From positions 1 through 5,974 of IMG/VR virus record IMGVR_UViG_3300020041_000021: a stretch of DNA of 5,974 bases; one strand, 5' to 3'. The DNA is from a virus. The position numbers were made by a program, and so were the translations under genes. Below the pieces are notes generated by a model. The model saw only the letters and a program-made list of their open reading frames with translations. It did not search any database and was not told the DNA's origin. Below are positions 120-5,974 of this stretch, piece after piece. Position 1 is the first letter of the stretch. The number at the start of each line of letters is the position of its first letter.

Positions 120-462
120 TTTCGATTTTGAGAAGCGTGTCAATTATAATTACTCGATTCCTCGATATTATTTTAAATACCTCAAATCGGAAGACGAGGT
201 TGCTCGTTCGGTTGCCGCTGCTGATTCTTATGCACGTTTTAGCAAGTCTTCTTTGGTTAAGCGTATTGTGTCTCTGTGCGTTGAGCGGTTCGGCCTCGGT
301 TCCGCCGTATCCCGTAGAGAGACGTACACGTGGGAGCAGAAACAGATGATGCGTTTCTCTGCTTCTTCCCGCAAAATGCCCGATTTCGACCCTCCTACTT
401 GGCTAGATTTTGATATTCTTCAGTTTTGGAGAGACCATTATAAACTTCAACTAAACATTTAA
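1..462 (+). CDS. VP4: Replication initiator protein (VP4 / gene A-like), C-terminal part. It continues the CDS that starts at 5247 across the circular junction.
   Basis: Frame 1 is open from position 1 (TPLSCLLQHRRYTRKF...) to TAA at 460-462, and it is the same frame as 5247..5974 after subtracting 5855. The 126-aa track ORF at 82..462 is only the internal-Met tail of this protein. Confidence 0.9.
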   Translation, partial: TPLSCLLQHRRYTRKFVSAGVGDFLGYMPRPSVRTSSWSYFDFEKRVNYNYSIPRYYFKYLKSEDEVARSVAAADSYARFSKSSLVKRIVSLCVERFGLGSAVSRRETYTWEQKQMMRFSASSRKMPDFDPPTWLDFDILQFWRDHYKLQLNI

Positions 463-465
463 TTT

Positions 466-2280
466 ATGGGAAAACAACCTTTTATCTCTCATGCTGTTAA
501 CGGCTACTCTCGATACGATGTCCCCGAGAGTAAGGCCTTTACGTGTACACCGGGTATCTTGTATCCGGTGCGGATTGATTTTATTAACGCTCGTGACCGT
601 GTGTCTATTGAGCAAGGCATTGATGTTCGTACTAATCCACTCGCCGTCCCGACATTCAATCCTTACACTATTCGACTTCATCGTTTTTATGTGCCGCTTC
701 AGTTGTATCACCCTGAAATGCGAACGAATAGCAGTAAGTTTGATATGAATAGCTTGAGCCTGAACTGGATAGCCACGACTATTGACTCAGGCTCCCCCAT
801 TGGAGAACACGATACCGCGCCTTCCAATAGTCTCTTCGCTTGGTTGCGCTTGAGTAATAAGCGGGTTTTTGGCGACAGCACCGTTCCCGCCGTTGATTCG
901 AGCCTTGTCTCGCTCTCCGCTTCGGCCGTTGATGGCTCTTGGGCTAATGCTGATACTCTTTTGGCTTACTGGGATATCGTTCGTAATTTTTACGGCTATT
1001 CGCAGTGGGGTGTTTTTTCGTACGCTTGGCCAGGCTCTTCGTCCATCCGTTACGATACCCAGATTTCTAAATATACTTCTAAGCTTGAGTCTAGTGGTTC
1101 TTTCTTTTCGCAGGCTTATGGAAATCTTGAATTCCTTGATGCTTACTTTGAGAGTCAATTCTACCCCGCCGCCGTCCCCTCCAGCAATAATACCTATAAT
1201 CGCGGAAACCTGTTTCTTCAAATCGTTAATAGTGACGTTACCTTAAATTCGAGTTCTCTTGGTGCGGCCGGTAATGGTTATCCAGTGGCTGCTCTTGATA
1301 CTCGATTTACAGGTTCGGTCCCTGCCGATTATGTCACAACGGATACTCCTACGGCTGTTAAAAGCATATACTTTTCTGCCTTGGGTATTCAGTATTATCC
1401 GATGGCTGTAGTGCCTTCAAATCCTGACCGTTTTAGCCGTTTGCTTCCGATTGGTTCTGCTGACGCCGTCTCGATGTCTGGTGTCAGCACGATTCCCCAG
1501 TTGGCTATTGCTTCGCGTCTTCAAGAGTACAAGGATTTGCTTGGCGCCGGCGGTAGTCGCTATAGCGATTGGCTCGAAACGTTTTTTGCCTCTAAAATTG
1601 AACACGTCGACCGCCCGAAACTCCTTTTTAGCGCTTCTCAGACCGTCAACGTCCAAGTGGTTATGAATCAGTCTGGCGCTAATAATTTTGCTAACGAGTC
1701 TTACTCCTTGCCTCCTCTCGGACAGCAGGGTGGAGCTATCGCTTTCAACGACCGTTTAGGTCGACGGCAGTCTTATTACTTCCGCGAACCTGGCTACATG
1801 ATTGACATGTTGAGCATTCGTCCCGTTTATTATTGGTCTAACATAACCCCCGACTACCTTTCTTATAGGGGTAGTGATTATTTTAATCCTATTTACAACG
1901 ATATCGGCTACCAAGATGTGCCTACTTTTCGCTTAGCCTCGTCTATACCGCAGGCTAATATGGCCGCTGTTCATGAACCTTGTTTTAATGAATTTAGAGC
2001 TTCCTACGACGAGGTTTTGGGTCAGCTTAATCCCGCGTACGCTGCCGCTGGTGCTACGCCTCTTTATTCTTATTGGGTACAGCAACGCTCTTTTAGTGGA
2101 TTCGGTCTTTCTGCAGGCAATTCTCGCCCCTATTATCCTATGCTGTTTGTCGACATGTCTCAGGTAAATTCGCCGTTTGTTTCTAAAAGTGAGGATAACT
2201 TCTTTGTGAATATGTCTTACGCGGTACAGAAGAAGAGCCTCGTAAACAAATCCTTTGCTACTCGTTTGTCTAATCGTTAA
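466..2280 (+). CDS. VP1: Major capsid protein (Microviridae F / VP1 family), 604 aa
   Basis: This is the largest ORF, and its ATG lies 3 nt after the Rep stop. The N-terminal segments (GILYPVRIDF, RTNPLAVPTFNPYTIRLHRFYVPLQLY) look like the conserved F-protein jelly-roll N-terminus. Size and position next to Rep and the pilot protein fit VP1. Confidence 0.9.
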   Translation: MGKQPFISHAVNGYSRYDVPESKAFTCTPGILYPVRIDFINARDRVSIEQGIDVRTNPLAVPTFNPYTIRLHRFYVPLQLYHPEMRTNSSKFDMNSLSLNWIATTIDSGSPIGEHDTAPSNSLFAWLRLSNKRVFGDSTVPAVDSSLVSLSASAVDGSWANADTLLAYWDIVRNFYGYSQWGVFSYAWPGSSSIRYDTQISKYTSKLESSGSFFSQAYGNLEFLDAYFESQFYPAAVPSSNNTYNRGNLFLQIVNSDVTLNSSSLGAAGNGYPVAALDTRFTGSVPADYVTTDTPTAVKSIYFSALGIQYYPMAVVPSNPDRFSRLLPIGSADAVSMSGVSTIPQLAIASRLQEYKDLLGAGGSRYSDWLETFFASKIEHVDRPKLLFSASQTVNVQVVMNQSGANNFANESYSLPPLGQQGGAIAFNDRLGRRQSYYFREPGYMIDMLSIRPVYYWSNITPDYLSYRGSDYFNPIYNDIGYQDVPTFRLASSIPQANMAAVHEPCFNEFRASYDEVLGQLNPAYAAAGATPLYSYWVQQRSFSGFGLSAGNSRPYYPMLFVDMSQVNSPFVSKSEDNFFVNMSYAVQKKSLVNKSFATRLSNR

Positions 2281-2292
2281 TCTATTAATTTT

Positions 2293-2589
2293 ATGGCGCT
2301 TGATTGGTTACTCGAAGATGCCCCCGCCTACGTTCCCCGCGGTCGGCGCATCCTCTCCGTTCTCGATGGTTCCGGAACCGTCGATGTTTTGCCCGGCCGT
2401 CCGGATGTGAAGGCTGAGCCCTCTGATTTTGACAGAGGTGAAAAGTTCAACCCCGAAATTGATTTTGACCCTAATTCGTTCTCCCGCATGGATAAGTTTG
2501 ACGGTCTCGAGGTTGGTCAGGAATTTATTGATTCAGAGCTGGATAAATTGAAGCCCGCTTCAAAATCCTCTAATTCTGAAGAAAAATAG
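2293..2589 (+). CDS. Acidic 98-aa hypothetical protein, a possible internal scaffolding protein
   Basis: ATG-to-TAG ORF directly downstream of VP1. It is rich in D/E (EIDFDPNSFSRMDKFDGLEVGQEFIDSELDKL). The function is guessed only from its acidity and position. Confidence 0.6.
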   Translation: MALDWLLEDAPAYVPRGRRILSVLDGSGTVDVLPGRPDVKAEPSDFDRGEKFNPEIDFDPNSFSRMDKFDGLEVGQEFIDSELDKLKPASKSSNSEEK

Positions 2590-2620
2590 TACACTCTTTA
2601 CTTGACGATATATGCTACGT

Positions 2621-2700
2621 GCGCGGACCCCTCTGGAAGAGTTCGTGAATTTCTGAGGGTTATTGGTAACGACTGCCGGAGAGGCCGCGCATTTTTCTAT
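2621..2700 (+). terminator. Long imperfect hairpin followed by a T-run, a candidate intrinsic terminator/attenuator or ssDNA structural element
   Basis: The outer stem pairs 2621-2636 with 2676-2690: 13 Watson-Crick pairs, one G-T, one mismatch and one bulged A. The inner stem pairs 2640-2646 with 2669-2674: 6 bp with one bulged T. The apical loop is 22 nt. The GC-rich stem base (GGCCGCGC) is followed immediately by ATTTTTCTAT. Confidence 0.35.
2634..2644 (+). repeat. Intergenic 11-mer TGGAAGAGTTC, copy 1
   Basis: Exact match to 4927-4937 in the other structured intergenic region. Confidence 0.7.
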
Positions 2701-2721: not shown

Positions 2722-2913
2722 ATGTCTGACACTAAACAACCCTTCTATAGGTCAAAAGCTTTTTGGACGCTCATTTCCTCCATTATCGCTGCTTTGGCTG
2801 CCTTTTTCTTGTCGTCATGTTCTGCTCAGGCTAGGGTGCAGCGCAGTGGCGTTCACGTCGATACAGTGCGTGTCGATTACATTATTCGTTCTAATAATTT
2901 AACTCACGTGTAG
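2722..2913 (+). CDS. Small predicted lipoprotein / membrane protein, 63 aa
   Basis: The ATG at 2722 is preferred over the TTG at 2602. The protein has a charged n-region (MSDTKQPFYRSKAF), a hydrophobic core (WTLISSIIAALAAFF) and a lipobox-like L-S-S-C with Cys33 at 2818-2820. The predicted mature peptide is 31 aa. The TAG stop lies 1 nt before the VP2 ATG. Confidence 0.6.
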   Translation: MSDTKQPFYRSKAFWTLISSIIAALAAFFLSSCSAQARVQRSGVHVDTVRVDYIIRSNNLTHV

Positions 2914-2914
2914 T

Positions 2915-4168
2915 ATGGCTGTTCCTGTTGCCTCCGCCGCGTCTTTTGGTCAGTCCCTCGGCCAGGCTGCCGCCTCTACGGGTACTACAGGCTTAATCTC
3001 TGGTGCCCTCGGGCAACTTTTCGGCGGCATGAATGCCCGTCGCCAATGGCGTTATCAACAGAAACAGATGAAGCTTCAGCAGCAGTATGCTCTTGAGCAA
3101 ATGCAGAAGCAATCAGAACTTTCTTACGCTAATTGGCAGAAACAATTTGATTACGAAAACGCCTACAATGACCCTTCAAAGGTCTTCGACCGCTATTTGA
3201 AGGCCGGCGTAACACCCGCCGCTGTTTTAGGCTCTTCGGGCGTCGGCGTTAATGCTACCATGTCCGGCGGCTCTGCCCCTATGCCTTCCGCCTCTGGCCC
3301 TACTGGTGGTTCGCCCGTCGCCCCCGGTGGTTTCGCCGCTGCTGACCCTACTGCTATCGCGCAGAATATGGTCGCGCGTTCTACGGTCGACCGTAATACT
3401 GCTGCTGCTAATCGAGATGATGCAGAAGCTGACCTCATGAGAGGTAATACTCATAGTGCAGACTGGCGAAAGGATATGGACGCGCTGGAGAAGAAATCTT
3501 TAGAGTATAACATCGATAATGCTTCTGAATTGATTCGCCTTAATCGCGCTTTGGCTGACATCCATGCAGCTGATGCTGAATACGCTGACCTTATGGCTAC
3601 ATACAAGTTTCAAGATTTTGTTGCCATGTATTCGAAGCATGTCGAGGAGGCGAGTCAGATTAAGAAATACAATGATAAATATTTCGATTCCGTTTATGCC
3701 GCTCAAATCGCTCGAGATTTTGCTGCTGCTTACGAATCTGCCGCTTCCGGCGATGTCTTAAATGTTGAGTCTGAAGTACGTAAGGTTAATTTAGCTGACC
3801 TTCGTGAATGGTTTTCCCTGAACTGGGATTCTGAGATTGATGTTCCGGAGGTTGACGAGAAAGGTAAGCCTACTGGTAAAACGACAAAGATGACAGGTCG
3901 TCAGATTCATCAGAGGTTAATGGGTCTCGCTGCCTCGGAAGGAGAGCAAAGCCTCTCGGGCCGTTGGTTTCAGAATCGCTCCAGTAAGAATGCTTTTGGC
4001 TATAGTTTGGCTAGAACTGCCTTGGTTGGCGCTATGGCCGTTGCCGGCACGGCCGCGACAAAGCGTCCCGTTTCTGTTGGTTATGATGAAGAGAGGGAAG
4101 CTTACAACAGAGACGGTGAATTTGTTGGAGGCACGAGAGTATCCCGTCGTCATTTGAGGAAAAATTGA
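2915..4168 (+). CDS. VP2: DNA pilot / minor capsid protein (VP2, gene H-like), 417 aa
   Basis: The N-terminus is Gly/Ala-rich and hydrophobic. A Q-rich helical segment follows, then NDPSKVFDRYLKAGVTPAAVLG (aa 85-106), which matches the AGLNP-type motif common in microvirus pilot proteins. A G/S/P-rich linker covers aa 105-146, followed by a long helical charged region. The size and second-largest-ORF status fit VP2. Confidence 0.8.
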   Translation: MAVPVASAASFGQSLGQAAASTGTTGLISGALGQLFGGMNARRQWRYQQKQMKLQQQYALEQMQKQSELSYANWQKQFDYENAYNDPSKVFDRYLKAGVTPAAVLGSSGVGVNATMSGGSAPMPSASGPTGGSPVAPGGFAAADPTAIAQNMVARSTVDRNTAAANRDDAEADLMRGNTHSADWRKDMDALEKKSLEYNIDNASELIRLNRALADIHAADAEYADLMATYKFQDFVAMYSKHVEEASQIKKYNDKYFDSVYAAQIARDFAAAYESAASGDVLNVESEVRKVNLADLREWFSLNWDSEIDVPEVDEKGKPTGKTTKMTGRQIHQRLMGLAASEGEQSLSGRWFQNRSSKNAFGYSLARTALVGAMAVAGTAATKRPVSVGYDEEREAYNRDGEFVGGTRVSRRHLRKN

Positions 4169-4249: not shown

Positions 4250-4570
4250 ATGAAAAAGGTAAGTAAAAAATCCCGAATCAATGATTTGATGATTGACGTT
4301 GTTGAGTATGCTTTCACCGAGTGGCTTGTTCGTCAAGGCATATTCACTTCTTTTAAGGTAAACTATGAGAGCACTGTTTCTCCCTATCGGAGCTTCCGCG
4401 ACCGCCTTCGCGCTCATATTCGGCGTTCTCTTTGTAGCCCTGGCTTTGATCCGAGTACCTTAATTTCCTCTGCCTTCTTATTTGCTGCGACACCCGAGGG
4501 TGTTGATTTTTGGGAAAAGCAGTCAGCTGCTTGGGAGCTTTTTTACGTGAGATTACAAACAAGACTTTAA
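4250..4570 (+). CDS. Hypothetical protein, 106 aa (ORFan)
   Basis: ATG-to-TAA ORF on the coding strand that fills the gap between VP2 and the next ORF. It has a basic N-terminus (MKKVSKKSR) and an aromatic C-terminal segment (TPEGVDFWEKQSAAWELFY). I do not recognise a family. Confidence 0.6.
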   Translation: MKKVSKKSRINDLMIDVVEYAFTEWLVRQGIFTSFKVNYESTVSPYRSFRDRLRAHIRRSLCSPGFDPSTLISSAFLFAATPEGVDFWEKQSAAWELFYVRLQTRL

Positions 4571-4581
4571 ATTATATTACT

Positions 4582-4905
4582 ATGACAGAAATTCATGTTG
4601 TTATCCGTCGAATTAACCCGGCCATCAAAATTGACCTTGTCCAGGTAGGGCGTCTCAAAGATTGTCAATTTGAACCCCTTCCTTCTAGTGCTATCGCGAA
4701 TTCTCCTATTTCCTGCTTTTTGAAGAGTTCGAATATCTGCGACTCAGCTTACGTCGACCATTCGGATGTCTCCAACCTCATTGCCGCCTGCGAAGGTCTT
4801 CCTGGTTTTGACATTGAATTTTTCGACAATACGATTATTCTCATTTTTGACTTTGAACTTAACTGCGATGAAATCACGACGAAAGAAAAAGACTCGGGGA
4901 ACTAA
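4582..4905 (+). CDS. Hypothetical acidic protein, 107 aa (ORFan)
   Basis: The ATG at 4582 lies 11 nt after the preceding stop and is preferred over the alternative-start extension at 4510, which would overlap the upstream gene. The protein is net acidic with 5 Cys. I do not recognise a family. Confidence 0.55.
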   Translation: MTEIHVVIRRINPAIKIDLVQVGRLKDCQFEPLPSSAIANSPISCFLKSSNICDSAYVDHSDVSNLIAACEGLPGFDIEFFDNTIILIFDFELNCDEITTKEKDSGN

Positions 4906-4926
4906 AATCGTTACCCGTCCGCTTGG

Positions 4927-4937
4927 TGGAAGAGTTC
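4927..4937 (+). repeat. Intergenic 11-mer TGGAAGAGTTC, copy 2
   Basis: Exact match to 2634-2644. It ends 11 nt upstream of the three-way junction element. Confidence 0.7.
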
Positions 4938-4948
4938 TTTAGTTATTT

Positions 4949-5247: not shown

Positions 5248-5974
5248 TGGCCTGCTCTTCACCCATATGGATACGCAATCGTCGCTATTTCGACAAGAAG
5301 AATCCTTGTCGGGGTGGCTCCGACGTAGCCAAGTCTGCCTTAGCTCTTCGCCCCTGGGATATCGCTCGTCAGTGGTTGATGGTTCCTTGTGGAAAATGTG
5401 AGGACTGCTTGCGTCGCCAGCGTAATGATTGGTTCGTTCGGCTAGAGCGCGAGCTCTCTCGTTGTAAGGCGAATAGTCAGCAGGCGATATTTATTACCAT
5501 TACGATTGCTCCTAAGTATTACCAGGAGGCACTCCTTGACCCGGCTCGTTTCATTCGACGATGGAATGAGCGCGTTCGGCATACGCTTGGACATTCTTTT
5601 AAGCACGCGTTTTTTCAAGAGTTTGGGACTCACCCGGAAACAGGTTCGGAGCCTCGCCTACATTTCCATGGTTTTCTTTTCGGTACTGACTGCATGTACA
5701 ACGATATTCGAACGGCCGTCCGCGACCTTGGTTTTGTGTGGTTAGCGAAAGCCACCCACAAGCGCGCTCGCTATTGCGTAAAGTATGTTACTAAACAAAT
5801 TCAATTTAATCCCGAAGAAATTTCGGATAAACATGTTACTGTAGATGGAAAGCTTACACCTTTATCTTGCCTCCTCCAACATCGCCGTTATACGCGAAAA
5901 TTCGTATCTGCTGGCGTTGGTGATTTTCTTGGTTATATGCCTCGCCCTTCTGTTCGTACTTCGTCGTGGTCTTA
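5247..5974 (+). CDS. VP4: Replication initiator protein (VP4 / gene A-like HUH rolling-circle endonuclease), N-terminal part. It runs off the window end and continues at 1..462, for 356 aa in total.
   Basis: My own translation of frame 3 is open from the TGA at 5202-5204 to the window end. It shows the N-terminal ACSSPIWIRN and VPCGKCEDCLRRQRNDW, RCR motif 1 FITITI (5490-5507), motif 2 LHFHGFLF (5658-5681) and motif 3 YCVKYVTK. The two tyrosines of motif 3 (5772-5774 and 5784-5786) are spaced as in the phiX174 A protein. The proposed start is GTG at 5247, and the first ATG is at 5379. Confidence 0.9.
   Translation, partial: MACSSPIWIRNRRYFDKKNPCRGGSDVAKSALALRPWDIARQWLMVPCGKCEDCLRRQRNDWFVRLERELSRCKANSQQAIFITITIAPKYYQEALLDPARFIRRWNERVRHTLGHSFKHAFFQEFGTHPETGSEPRLHFHGFLFGTDCMYNDIRTAVRDLGFVWLAKATHKRARYCVKYVTKQIQFNPEEISDKHVTVDGKLTPLSCLLQHRRYTRKFVSAGVGDFLGYMPRPSVRTSSWS
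5856..5974. repeat. Terminal redundancy, copy 2 (identical to 1-119)
   Basis: Same as copy 1. Position 5856 corresponds to position 1, and the reading frame is continuous. Confidence 0.97.

Follow-up and report, generated by a model that had tools for sequence, protein, structure and literature searches.

Immediately upstream of the VP2 gene, the window (the whole 5,974-nucleotide stretch of viral DNA analyzed here) contains a short open reading frame at positions 2722 to 2913 that is almost certainly a genuine, strongly constrained gene and whose product is very probably a processed lipoprotein. The predicted precursor carries all the sequence hallmarks of a bacterial prolipoprotein. Its role may, by analogy with the colicin lysis proteins, be lysis or disruption of the host envelope, and this tentative reading is favored over a receptor-masking role like that of T5 Llp, which we regard as possible but doubtful.

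Translation from the ATG at 2722 to the TAG at 2911 to 2913 gives the 63-residue product MSDTKQPFYRSKAFWTLISSIIAALAAFFLSSCSAQARVQRSGVHVDTVRVDYIIRSNNLTHV. Disruption of the frame in close relatives had been named beforehand as a finding that would speak against the original proposal, and it was never seen: the 83 distinct homologous coding sequences are all exactly 192 nt long, with Cys33 invariant and the residue before it (position −1) always serine. Entropy over these 83 sequences is 0.27, 0.15, and 1.11 at codon positions 1, 2, and 3, respectively, and dN/dS for the gene is approximately 0.06 (NG86). The third-position value of 1.11 indicates that the gene stands alone and is not overprinted. 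The junction with VP2, read directly, is TAG-T-ATG, and the stop thus lies exactly 1 nt before the VP2 ATG at 2915, as the initial annotation had stated. The same spacing (TAG or TAA, then T, then ATG) is maintained at 76 of 77 loci, and the tightness of this junction suggests that VP2 is translationally coupled to the lipoprotein ORF.

Features of the lipoprotein locus and of the overprinted reading frame, in positions of the window
Feature	Positions	Strand	Basis
Prolipoprotein gene, 63 codons plus TAG	2722..2913	+	192-nt ORF in 83/83 distinct relatives; dN/dS 0.06; 325 homologous clusters
Signal peptide, residues 1 to 32: basic n-region and hydrophobic core	2722..2817	+	Consensus SK[KA]FWTL..I.AAL.AFF; dN/dS 0.043
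Lipobox L30-S31-S32-C33, with Cys33 the predicted lipidation and cleavage site	2809..2820	+	Cys invariant; −1 residue always small
Predicted mature lipopeptide C33 to V63, 31 residues, CSAQARVQRSGVHVDTVRVDYIIRSNNLTHV	2818..2910	+	No acidic surface-export signal at +2 to +6
1-nt spacer and VP2 ATG	2914..2917	+	Stop, T, and ATG in 76/77 loci
Conserved structured element: outer stem GUGCGCGG/CCGCGCAU, inner stems, then T-run	2619..2697	+	Fold and covariation
Overprinted 119-aa membrane-protein ORF, 5′ part, in the +1 frame of VP4	5845..5974	+	Start and stop kept in 43/43; VP4 entropy drop
Overprinted 119-aa ORF, 3′ part (circular genome)	120..349	+	Continuation of 5845 to 5974

The signal peptidase II architecture first proposed for this ORF is borne out in all its parts, namely, a basic n-region, a hydrophobic core, the motif L-S-S-C with Cys33, and a mature part of 31 residues. 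The n-region owes its charges to K5, R10, and K12, and the uncharged core extends from A13 to L30, being 16 to 18 residues long depending on the start chosen. The PROSITE-type lipoprotein rule reads {DERK}(6)-[LIVMFWSTAG](2)-[LIVMFYSTAGCQ]-[AGS]-C with a Lys or Arg near the N terminus; in its strict form, the Cys lies at positions 15 to 35 and the Lys or Arg within the first seven residues. The window protein agrees with the strict form through Cys33 and K5, and the pattern itself falls on residues 23 to 33. When the ATG-initiated ORFs of at least 30 aa on both strands of the window were scanned with a relaxed rule (Cys at 15 to 40, Lys or Arg within the first 14 residues), the lipoprotein ORF was the sole match. 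The sequence features of a PS00013/PS51257-type prolipoprotein are all found: a lipobox following an uncharged core, a basic n-region, and conservation of both the Cys and the small residue at −1.

These features extend to the family. In an alignment of 26 diverse members, with identities to the window protein from 27% to 87%, no column but that of the Cys is invariant, and at least 90% of the sequences share K12, W15, T16, A23, A24, and F29. The −1 residue is Ser, Gly, or Ala in all 173 family members with a locatable motif; a few relatives have an atypical Glu at −2 (L-E-S-C). The signal peptide has a dN/dS of 0.043 and is under constraint no weaker than that on the mature part. The latter is strongly conserved within its own type (for example, at G43, H45, D47 to D52, Y53, R56, and S57), and in other sub-clades it is swapped for unrelated sequence types behind the signal peptide. 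The C terminus of the 63-aa protein is polar (…RSNNLTHV). An AlphaFold2 model built from a 66-sequence alignment consists of one long helix of moderate confidence (mean pLDDT of 73.7, with 53 to 73 in the mature part) and offers no functional clue; it does not support a beta-hairpin in the mature part.

Surface lipoproteins of Bacteroidetes carry an export signal just after Cys+1, of the form C-X-K-(D/E)2-X, which is SDDDD in B. fragilis (PMC5080379). Positions +2 to +6 of the window lipoprotein read SAQAR, and two acidic residues at these positions occur in none of the 173 family members, five of which have a single Glu at +6. Since this export signal is missing, the mature lipopeptide should, from its sequence, face the periplasm.

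A structured element resembling a terminator separates the 98-aa ORF from the ATG of the lipoprotein gene. Compensatory double changes are seen in 6 of its 22 predicted pairs across 40 sequences, and neither the window nor the ∼100-nt insertion found here in relatives has a match in Rfam. This conserved hairpin explains the spurious calls of a 100- to 103-aa ORF. It is very improbable that the true product is such a longer protein, starting at TTG 2602 (at an ATG in many relatives) and keeping the hydrophobic stretch as an internal membrane anchor, even though about half of the database gene calls are 100 aa long and the extension appears conserved at the amino acid level in the 100-aa relatives. 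The apparent conservation is that of the hairpin, with its six covarying pairs. The ATG from which relatives open the extension lies in another frame in the window and meets a stop after 14 codons. About 40% of relatives have an upstream frame that is frameshifted, split by the ∼100-nt insertion, or closed after one to five codons, whereas ATG 2722 is always retained. The 103-aa TTG-start ORF from 2602 (100 aa in many databases) was therefore rejected as a gene, its upstream frame being broken in so many relatives and its region being a covarying hairpin. For this lipoprotein family, about every second database gene call is in error, giving 100 aa instead of 63 aa.

The family comprises 325 homologous protein clusters (90% identity) at an E value of ≤0.01, with 65 representatives at 50% identity, across which no residue other than the Cys stays unchanged. 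Cellular homologs were looked for in the full profile search, which matched only microvirus and provirus proteins, apart from two repetitive long proteins that appear to be compositional matches. An ORF of 58 to 78 aa with the signal peptide and Cys lies upstream of VP2, immediately so in nearly all cases, in 22 of 22 GenBank relatives examined whose VP1 is at least 46% identical. The gene is present in all 83 close-clade genomes and is a core gene of the clade, and the same lipoprotein module is found at other genome positions in other microvirus lineages without a peptidase. Homologs were also found in three Alistipes genomes, inside VP4-VP1-VP2 proviruses, in a genome-collection scan that was based on a narrower, less diverse alignment. 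In the temperate relatives, the lipoprotein gene lies at the provirus edge and adjoins host DNA. The Alistipes proviruses have long forms of the lipoprotein (190 to 216 aa), with an N-terminal lipobox, a hydrophobic stretch of 11 to 17 residues, and a basic C-terminal tail; their middle region is a putative overprinted low-complexity reading frame. Because relatives are integrated in Alistipes genomes, the host of the window virus is probably an Alistipes-like diderm of the Bacteroidales, and the “gokusho/alpa-like” placement made at the outset is compatible with these proviral relatives.

Pfam, PHROGs, and NCBIfam assign the lipoprotein to no family. Pfam at an E value of ≤1 returned DUF4330 alone (E value of 0.15, below the cut-off of that family), and no similarity to the Lysis_col, entericidin, spanin, Llp, or Cor families was found in Pfam at this threshold, PHROGs, or NCBIfam. 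One NCBI record already labels a homolog “lipoprotein,” and a literature search on microvirus lipoproteins and on lysis proteins of Bacteroidales phages found no description of the family. A widespread lipoprotein family is thereby defined and tied to Alistipes and the Bacteroidales, with a clear and easily mutated feature in the lipobox Cys33.

Microviruses outside the phiX174 group that lack a peptidase rank among the most plentiful viruses of animal guts, and to our knowledge, their mode of lysis is largely undescribed. No peptidase family was found in the window (Pfam, PHROG), the genome gave no match to an endolysin or holin family, and neither the genome nor its relatives contain a recognizable lysis enzyme. 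The M15 peptidase is absent from all fetched loci that bear the lipoprotein, and the cultured B. fragilis microvirus phiHBP1 has this peptidase and no such lipoprotein. Since only a few percent of microviruses carry M15, its absence from the lipoprotein-bearing genomes is statistically uninformative, and a mutual exclusion of the two was rejected, given also that two more distant relatives have neither. From these two relatives, it follows that a lipoprotein is not the sole means of lysis available to such phages.

The initial annotation stated that, apart from the lipoprotein, no protein of the genome has a clear membrane-targeting signal. This is contradicted by a previously unannotated ORF of 119 codons that is overprinted on VP4 and encodes two to three strongly hydrophobic segments and a basic C terminus. 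The ORF runs to the end of the window and, because the window ends repeat, resumes near its beginning on the circular genome of 5,855 nt. Its ATG and stop are identical in 43 of 43 relatives, and it is retained in relatives down to approximately 53% VP1 identity. The third-position entropy of VP4 drops from a range of about 1.1 to 1.3 to one of 0.3 to 0.6, coinciding exactly with the overprinted ORF, which by this measure suppresses synonymous variation in VP4. The protein has no match in Pfam, PHROGs, or NCBIfam, and its gene is nearly always missed in databases (5 entries in 5.8 billion clusters). As a protein overprinted like phiX174 E, it is by analogy at least as good a candidate for lysis as the lipoprotein. 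The original proposal of the lipoprotein as a lysis or exclusion candidate thus holds in part: the gene is genuine and of the signal peptidase II type, a lysis enzyme is missing, and small phage and plasmid lipoproteins have such roles, but it is not the only membrane-targeted protein. A second, hidden membrane-protein gene competes with it for the lysis role, and both are relevant to the choice between lysis and exclusion in Bacteroidales microviruses.

In an Alistipes-like host, the precursor would be exported by Sec, lipidated at Cys33, and then cut by signal peptidase II, giving a 31-residue lipopeptide on the periplasmic side and a free, unusually conserved signal peptide. The gene may then serve an attack of the phage on the host envelope late in infection, as do the colicin lysis proteins, or bacteriocin release proteins (BRPs), whose action requires outer-membrane phospholipase A. 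The small lipoprotein, possibly together with a stable signal peptide, would be produced in low amounts, the gene lying behind a terminator-like hairpin and its translation being linked to that of VP2. The membranes would be destabilized from the periplasm, by the lipoprotein alone or with the overprinted 119-aa inner-membrane protein inside VP4. Colicin lysis proteins are small plasmid lipoproteins that act in lysis; BRPs are made as small precursors with a lipobox, and the mature lipoprotein reaches the outer membrane and is lethal if overexpressed (PMC2896534). BRP signal peptides are stable and themselves toxic, according to work cited there (references 47 and 48 in PMC2896534). If the membrane segment itself matters, as in the BRPs and in the transmembrane domain of phiX174 E, one would expect the signal peptide to be constrained no less than the mature part and the mature part to be swapped, as is observed. 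Among the points against a BRP-like reading, several unrelated types of mature part are unusual for an effector of one conserved target, and the same genome has a competing lysis candidate that is overprinted like phiX174 E.

With receptor masking, or superinfection exclusion, the periplasm-facing lipopeptide would bind the inner face of an outer-membrane entry protein, block adsorption or DNA delivery, and spare progeny from debris, in the manner of T5 Llp and Cor. Llp is a small phage lipoprotein acting in exclusion on the periplasmic side, and the architecture and predicted location of the window lipoprotein match it (PMC9586334), although the mature part has 31 aa against 61 for Llp and shows no similarity to Llp or Cor. 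Discrete, unrelated mature types behind a constant signal peptide would be expected of a module that tracks variable host receptors, yet the type shows no clear association with the VP1 or VP2 trees and, if anything, follows VP4: in star-like neighbor-joining (NJ) trees, which are crude and weak evidence, type B comes close to a clade only in the tree of VP4. The gene adjoins and appears coupled with VP2, and VP2 of phiHBP1 contributes to host range, but the data for that phage favor phase variation of capsular polysaccharide over a protein receptor (PMC13064476), and a periplasmic lipopeptide would be unable to mask a surface glycan. The position at the provirus edge beside host DNA in temperate relatives is typical of conversion genes; fixation of the gene throughout the clade is at odds with exclusion genes, which are usually sporadic, and exclusion would leave the strong constraint on the signal peptide unexplained.

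That constraint is what would be accounted for if the conserved membrane helix were itself the effector, with the uncleaved precursor or the released signal peptide acting in the inner membrane as a “protein antibiotic.” The helix could inhibit an essential enzyme of the envelope or obstruct the maturation or trafficking of lipoproteins (LspA, Lgt, LolCDE), and the protein could largely do without its variable C-terminal part, as in phiX174 E, the C-terminal domain of which is replaceable. In agreement with this are the low dN/dS of the signal peptide, not above that of the mature part, the near invariance of K12, W15, T16, A23, A24, and F29 across sequences otherwise 27 to 40% identical, the replacement of the mature part by unrelated sequences, and the precedent of the toxic, stable BRP signal peptides (from work cited as references 47 and 48 in PMC2896534). 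The invariant Cys and the small −1 residue nevertheless argue that processing matters, the mature part is strongly conserved within each type, and the sequence names no target; we consider this reading unlikely. Improbable, too, is a more specific form of it, in which the prolipoprotein would be a novel single-gene lysis factor acting through its conserved signal peptide: the signal peptide would either persist after cleavage or, as a poor substrate, jam the maturation or trafficking of lipoproteins (LspA, Lgt, or Lol) in Bacteroidales, and the interchangeable 30-residue lipopeptide would mainly deliver or anchor it. An active signal peptide, if real, would be the protein counterpart of globomycin and would add lipoprotein biogenesis to the envelope pathways hit by the “protein antibiotics” of small phages (MurA, MraY, MurJ). 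A role outside both lysis and exclusion, for example in modulating the host envelope or vesicle release in the course of infection or lysogeny as a conversion factor, or as a spanin-like outer-membrane partner of another small membrane protein, is rather unlikely, being a residual category to which nothing points specifically. It would suit the mobility of the module across microvirus lineages and genome positions, the presence, 350 nt upstream of the lipoprotein in Dipodfec virus UOA04_Rod_542, of a 72-aa ORF whose product begins with a membrane helix and ends in a charged helical tail, and the co-occurrence of the lipoprotein and the VP4-overprinted protein across the clade of the window, both being missing in PQ006994. 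A spanin would, however, have no endolysin to follow, and the gene is flanked in the window by VP2 and the acidic 98-aa protein, neither of them a type II membrane protein. Should either the lipoprotein or the overprinted protein turn out to be a “protein antibiotic,” what it hits would represent a previously unrecognized vulnerability of the envelope in a major gut phylum.

An attack on the envelope, the favored reading, invites comparison with the colicin lysis proteins or BRPs (Lysis_col; ColE7 Cel, pCloDF13 BRP). These likewise have very small lipobox precursors, with mature parts of approximately 28 to 33 residues against 31 here; their genes also follow a terminator-like hairpin at an operon end, and their signal peptide is functionally important, as the one found here is unusually conserved. 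They differ in having no detectable sequence similarity to the window lipoprotein (the Lysis_col profile is not matched), in belonging to enterobacterial colicin plasmids and not to a single-stranded DNA phage of Bacteroidales, and in a signal peptide of approximately 19 residues instead of 32.

T5 Llp and Cor (T1, phi80, N15) are also small phage-encoded lipoproteins that face the periplasm, which is predicted for the window protein from its lipobox and the lack of an export signal. In T5, llp adjoins the gene of the receptor-binding protein, and the gene described here is similarly placed beside a host-recognition gene, abutting VP2. Protection of progeny would be a plausible benefit in both cases (PMC9586334). 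The mature part of the window lipoprotein is half as long, at 31 versus 61 aa, lacks a disulfide pair, and is not similar in sequence; a glycan may serve as the receptor of the window virus, and the gene is fixed in its clade instead of sporadic. Spanins (the o-spanin of the Rz1 type and the u-spanin gp11 of T1) are small outer-membrane lipoproteins of phages that carry out the last step of Gram-negative lysis, and the long forms in Alistipes proviruses loosely resemble T1 gp11 in their lipobox, hydrophobic stretch, and basic tail. The genome studied here, by contrast, has no i-spanin, holin, or endolysin gene to accompany an o-spanin, the neighbors being the acidic 98-aa ORF and VP2, and the short 63-aa form lacks the C-terminal membrane segment of a u-spanin. 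With phiX174, the window virus shares a genome without a muralytic enzyme, and the lipoprotein shares with the MraY inhibitor E the design of a small membrane-targeted microvirus protein in which a hydrophobic helix at the N terminus is conserved and the C-terminal part is replaceable and under less constraint. E is, however, uncleaved and overprinted inside gene D, whereas the lipoprotein gene stands alone and encodes a lipobox; judged by gene architecture, the true analogue of E in this genome is the 119-aa ORF overprinted in VP4.

The window covers a microvirus genome that is circular and complete. Bases 1 to 119 are identical to bases 5856 to 5974, and this exact terminal direct repeat is the assembly overlap of the circular genome, which leaves 5,855 nt as the true length. 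A linear ORF scan misses VP4 and an ORF overprinted within it, because both cross the circular junction. Searches of the window against PHROGs and Pfam match VP1 and VP2 only. In GenBank, the closest matches are "Microviridae sp." entries without annotation, from the faeces of pig, deer and civet (72-79% nucleotide identity), followed at greater distance by Tortoise, Dipodfec, bajarodmic and Dulem microviruses.

Coordinates of the features discussed, in window positions
Feature	Position	Strand	Remarks
VP4 (replication protein)	5247, across the circular junction, to 462		356 aa
Overprinted ORF	5845-5974, then 120-349 (circular)	+	119 codons, ATG start, +1 frame of VP4
VP1 (capsid)	466-2280		
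TTG-ORF	2255-2410	+	51 aa
Acidic 98-aa ORF	2293-2589		
Multi-stem hairpin	2619-2697		conserved; follows the 98-aa ORF and precedes the lipoprotein ATG
Lipoprotein ORF	2722-2913	+	63 aa
VP2 (pilot)	2915-4168		several small ORFs downstream
Basic ORF	4868-4942	+	24 aa

Two further small ORFs were observed. The TTG-ORF, which begins within the last part of VP1 and extends into the first part of the 98-aa ORF, has a hydrophobic N terminus (MLLVCLIVNLLILWRLIGY…) and is without stops in 30 of the 36 relatives covering that stretch. The strongly basic ORF (MKSRRKKKTRGTKIVTRPLGGRVL) overlaps the end of ORF 4510-4905 and resembles the DNA-binding peptide J of phiX174 or VP8 of gokushoviruses; its motif RRGGRRGK.RPK.K.IPLGGSHL also terminates long ORFs of Alistipes proviruses.

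The lipoprotein ORF translates to MSDTKQPFYRSKAFWTLISSIIAALAAFFLSSCSAQARVQRSGVHVDTVRVDYIIRSNNLTHV, with K5, R10 and K12 in the n-region, an uncharged core from A13 to L30, and a lipobox L-S-S-C leading to Cys33 and a mature part of 31 residues. Translation and the lipobox rule confirm this architecture, as described in the initial annotation, and the stop indeed lies 1 nt before the VP2 start (TAG-T-ATG). The rule, PROSITE-style, was slightly relaxed (Cys at 15-40, Lys or Arg within the first 14 residues) and applied to every ATG-ORF of 30 aa or more in the window, on either strand; the lipoprotein ORF is the sole match and also conforms to the strict form.

This ORF represents a genuine gene, correctly read as 63 aa. 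A database search retrieved 325 homologous clusters, and one homolog, NCBI DAU60727.1, is already titled "MAG TPA: lipoprotein [Microviridae sp.]". All 83 distinct homologous CDS, taken from 80 IMG/VR loci, 3 of 4 GenBank loci and the window, are exactly 192 nt long with Cys33 and Ser32 invariant; entropy at codon positions 1, 2 and 3 is 0.27, 0.15 and 1.11, and dN/dS (NG86) is 0.06 at a dS of ~1.4. About half of the database calls for homologs are 100 aa long, starting from an upstream ATG. This reading was rejected as an artefact: in the window the upstream ATG of the relatives is out of frame, and ~40% of relatives do not keep the upstream frame intact, which either meets a stop within 1-5 codons, carries a frameshift or is interrupted by an insertion of ~100 nt. 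ATG 2722 is kept in every relative, including those with a broken upstream frame, and the apparent "conserved extension" is the nucleic-acid structure of the hairpin.

The hairpin consists of an outer stem (GUGCGCGG/CCGCGCAU) and inner stems, followed by a T-run. RNAalifold predicted 22 pairs from 40 sequences, six of them with compensatory double changes, such as G-C to A-U (5 sequences), U-A to C-G (10) and C-G to U-A (14), and Rfam holds no match to it. It resembles an intrinsic terminator or attenuator downstream of the VP1/98-aa block, behind which the lipoprotein and VP2 would be expressed at a lower level, or it could be a complementary-strand origin element on the packaged ssDNA strand. 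The ~100-nt insertion, conserved and GC-rich (CAATTGTTTACACCATTGTGGCGAGGTG…CGGCACCGTAGCTTCCC), separates the hairpin from the lipoprotein ATG in roughly a dozen close relatives (loci L008, at about 3036-3135, L013, L016, L017, L021, L026, L028, L039, L043, L049, L082 and L084). Rfam gives no match for it either, and a small mobile element or a structured element are the candidates.

Searching 1.84 billion representatives with a profile returned 65 family proteins. In a diverse alignment of 26 members, whose identity to the window protein is 27-87%, Cys is the sole invariant column, and K12, W15, T16, A23, A24 and F29 are conserved in at least 90%; the residue preceding Cys is S, G or A in all 173 members with a locatable motif. 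The signal peptide of the family (consensus SKKFWTLVAAIVAALAAFF) is better conserved than the mature part, which falls into unrelated types, namely, A (…RSGVHIDTVRVDYIIRSNN…), B (…HYVVQSASSVKSGDTTRTTITYEQIGNFKRP) and several others. Within the close clade, dN/dS is 0.043 for the signal part (residues 1-32) and 0.079 for the mature part, the signal being at least as constrained, which is unusual for a signal peptide merely cleaved off and degraded.

Proviral and some free relatives carry lipoprotein ORFs without a stop after the 60-aa module (6001-6609 in L103, from Alistipes montrealensis; 4688-5320 in L121; L090-L095 and L098). These continue for ~130 further codons through a 118-135-aa gene in another frame and end in the J-like basic motif. 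Both frames are open in all nine such loci examined, and ~30 of the 50%-identity representatives from the profile search have such a length (160-223 aa). The long ORFs could be real dual coding or a fusion artefact from gene calling.

All 22 GenBank relatives examined with VP1 at least 46% identical have a lipoprotein-type ORF of 58-78 aa ahead of VP2, in nearly all cases immediately ahead (the gap in Tortoise microvirus 7 is 140 nt); some relatives show an atypical lipobox, L-E-S-C. The ORF is absent from two more distant genomes, PQ006994 and MZ089787 (VP1 ~40%). In bajarodmic viruses 634 and 807, Dipodfec UOA04_Rod_542 and Dulem 219, the lipoprotein ORF is found between VP2 and VP4; in integrated proviruses it is positioned just upstream of VP4, at the proviral margin. 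Given these differing positions, the lipoprotein is a mobile module that has since been fixed in the clade of the window. In Dipodfec virus UOA04_Rod_542 (L123), a 72-aa ORF (3912-4130), whose product would begin with a membrane helix and end in a charged helical tail, precedes the lipoprotein copy (4485-4664) by ~350 nt, a loose likeness to an i-spanin/o-spanin pair.

When one genome of each prokaryotic species was scanned, three Alistipes genomes contained the family, and in A. montrealensis the member lies inside a VP4-VP1-VP2 provirus with bacterial genes on its flanks. These proviruses give a host link for the whole group, and, judging from these relatives, the host of the window phage is most likely Alistipes or a related member of the Bacteroidales, a diderm with a lipoprotein pathway. 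The VP4-VP1-small ORF-VP2 proviruses of the Alistipes genomes L103, L104 and L105 and of L091 (234-2018) sit in Alistipes chromosomes beside a formate/nitrite-transporter-like gene. Bacteroidetes lipoproteins reach the cell surface only with an acidic export signal after Cys, C-X-K-(D/E)2-X, or SDDDD in B. fragilis (PMC5080379). The window protein reads SAQAR at this position, and not one of the 173 family members carries two acidic residues within +2 to +6; with no such signal, the lipopeptide is predicted from its sequence to face the periplasm.

Hydrophobic ORFs were sought in all frames, and each was checked for staying open in 44 relatives. The one that stood out is the overprinted ORF, which translates to MESLHLYLASSNIAVIRENSYLLALVIFLVICLALLFVLRRGLISILRSVSIIITRFLDIILNTSNRKTRLLVRLPLLILMHVLASLLWLSVLCLCALSGSASVPPYPVERRTRGSRNR, with two to three hydrophobic segments and a basic C terminus. 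The initial annotation had taken the lipoprotein for the only membrane-targeted protein in the genome, which this ORF refutes. Its start, stop and length are identical in 43 of 43 relatives, and it is retained at 111-129 aa, with conserved motifs that include PPYP.E, down to ~53% VP1 identity. Exactly across VP4 codons ~190-315, third-position entropy drops from ~1.1-1.3 to 0.3-0.6 and first-position entropy increases, a pattern that marks a second reading frame under selection rather than low divergence. With only 5 homologs in 5.8 billion protein clusters, the gene is essentially unannotated. In phiX174 and reekeekeeviruses, the C-terminal part of Rep is known to contain overprinted genes, which gene callers miss (PMC9865509). 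By its predicted features, the protein looks like a holin or E-type lysis protein, making this a candidate lysis gene.

PHROGs and Pfam revealed no muralytic enzyme in the genome, and every fetched lipoprotein-bearing locus lacks an M15 peptidase; phiHBP1, a cultured microvirus of B. fragilis, encodes an M15 peptidase and lacks a lipoprotein of this kind (PMC13064476). For the lipoprotein gene, which is fixed in its clade, an envelope or lysis role is tentatively proposed, in line with the likeness to colicin lysis proteins and to phiX174 E described below, but the overprinted gene is a strong rival for lysis, and the mature part differs between types. In sequence, the protein resembles no lysis, spanin or exclusion family. 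Receptor masking or exclusion in the manner of T5 Llp is the chief alternative; Llp, a lipoprotein of the periplasm, attaches to FhuA from the inner side and shuts its outer loops (PMC9586334). Such masking fits the predicted periplasmic topology, the modular mature part, the adjoining VP2 gene and the provirus-edge position, but it appears rather unlikely: the mature part has just 31 aa, Bacteroides microviruses are hinted to depend on capsular glycans, and, a weaker point, the mature-part type shows no clear association with the VP1 or VP2 trees. A "protein antibiotic" mechanism centred on the signal peptide is improbable.

The literature searched contained no description of this lipoprotein family and no lysis gene assignment for peptidase-less Bacteroidales microviruses. 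Small phage or plasmid lipoproteins acting on the envelope are already known. What is new is that such a lipoprotein belongs to the core genes of an ssDNA microvirus clade, that it resembles none of the known families, and that conservation is inverted, with the signal part above the mature part. The E protein of phiX174 combines a conserved membrane segment with an exchangeable C-terminal part, a pattern that the lipoprotein shares. In size and architecture, the closest proteins are the colicin lysis proteins, made as small precursors with a lipobox; their mature lipopeptide is sent to the outer membrane and switches on phospholipase A (PMC2896534). Overproduction of these proteins is lethal, and their stable signal peptide is toxic by itself (PMC2896534, its references 47 and 48).
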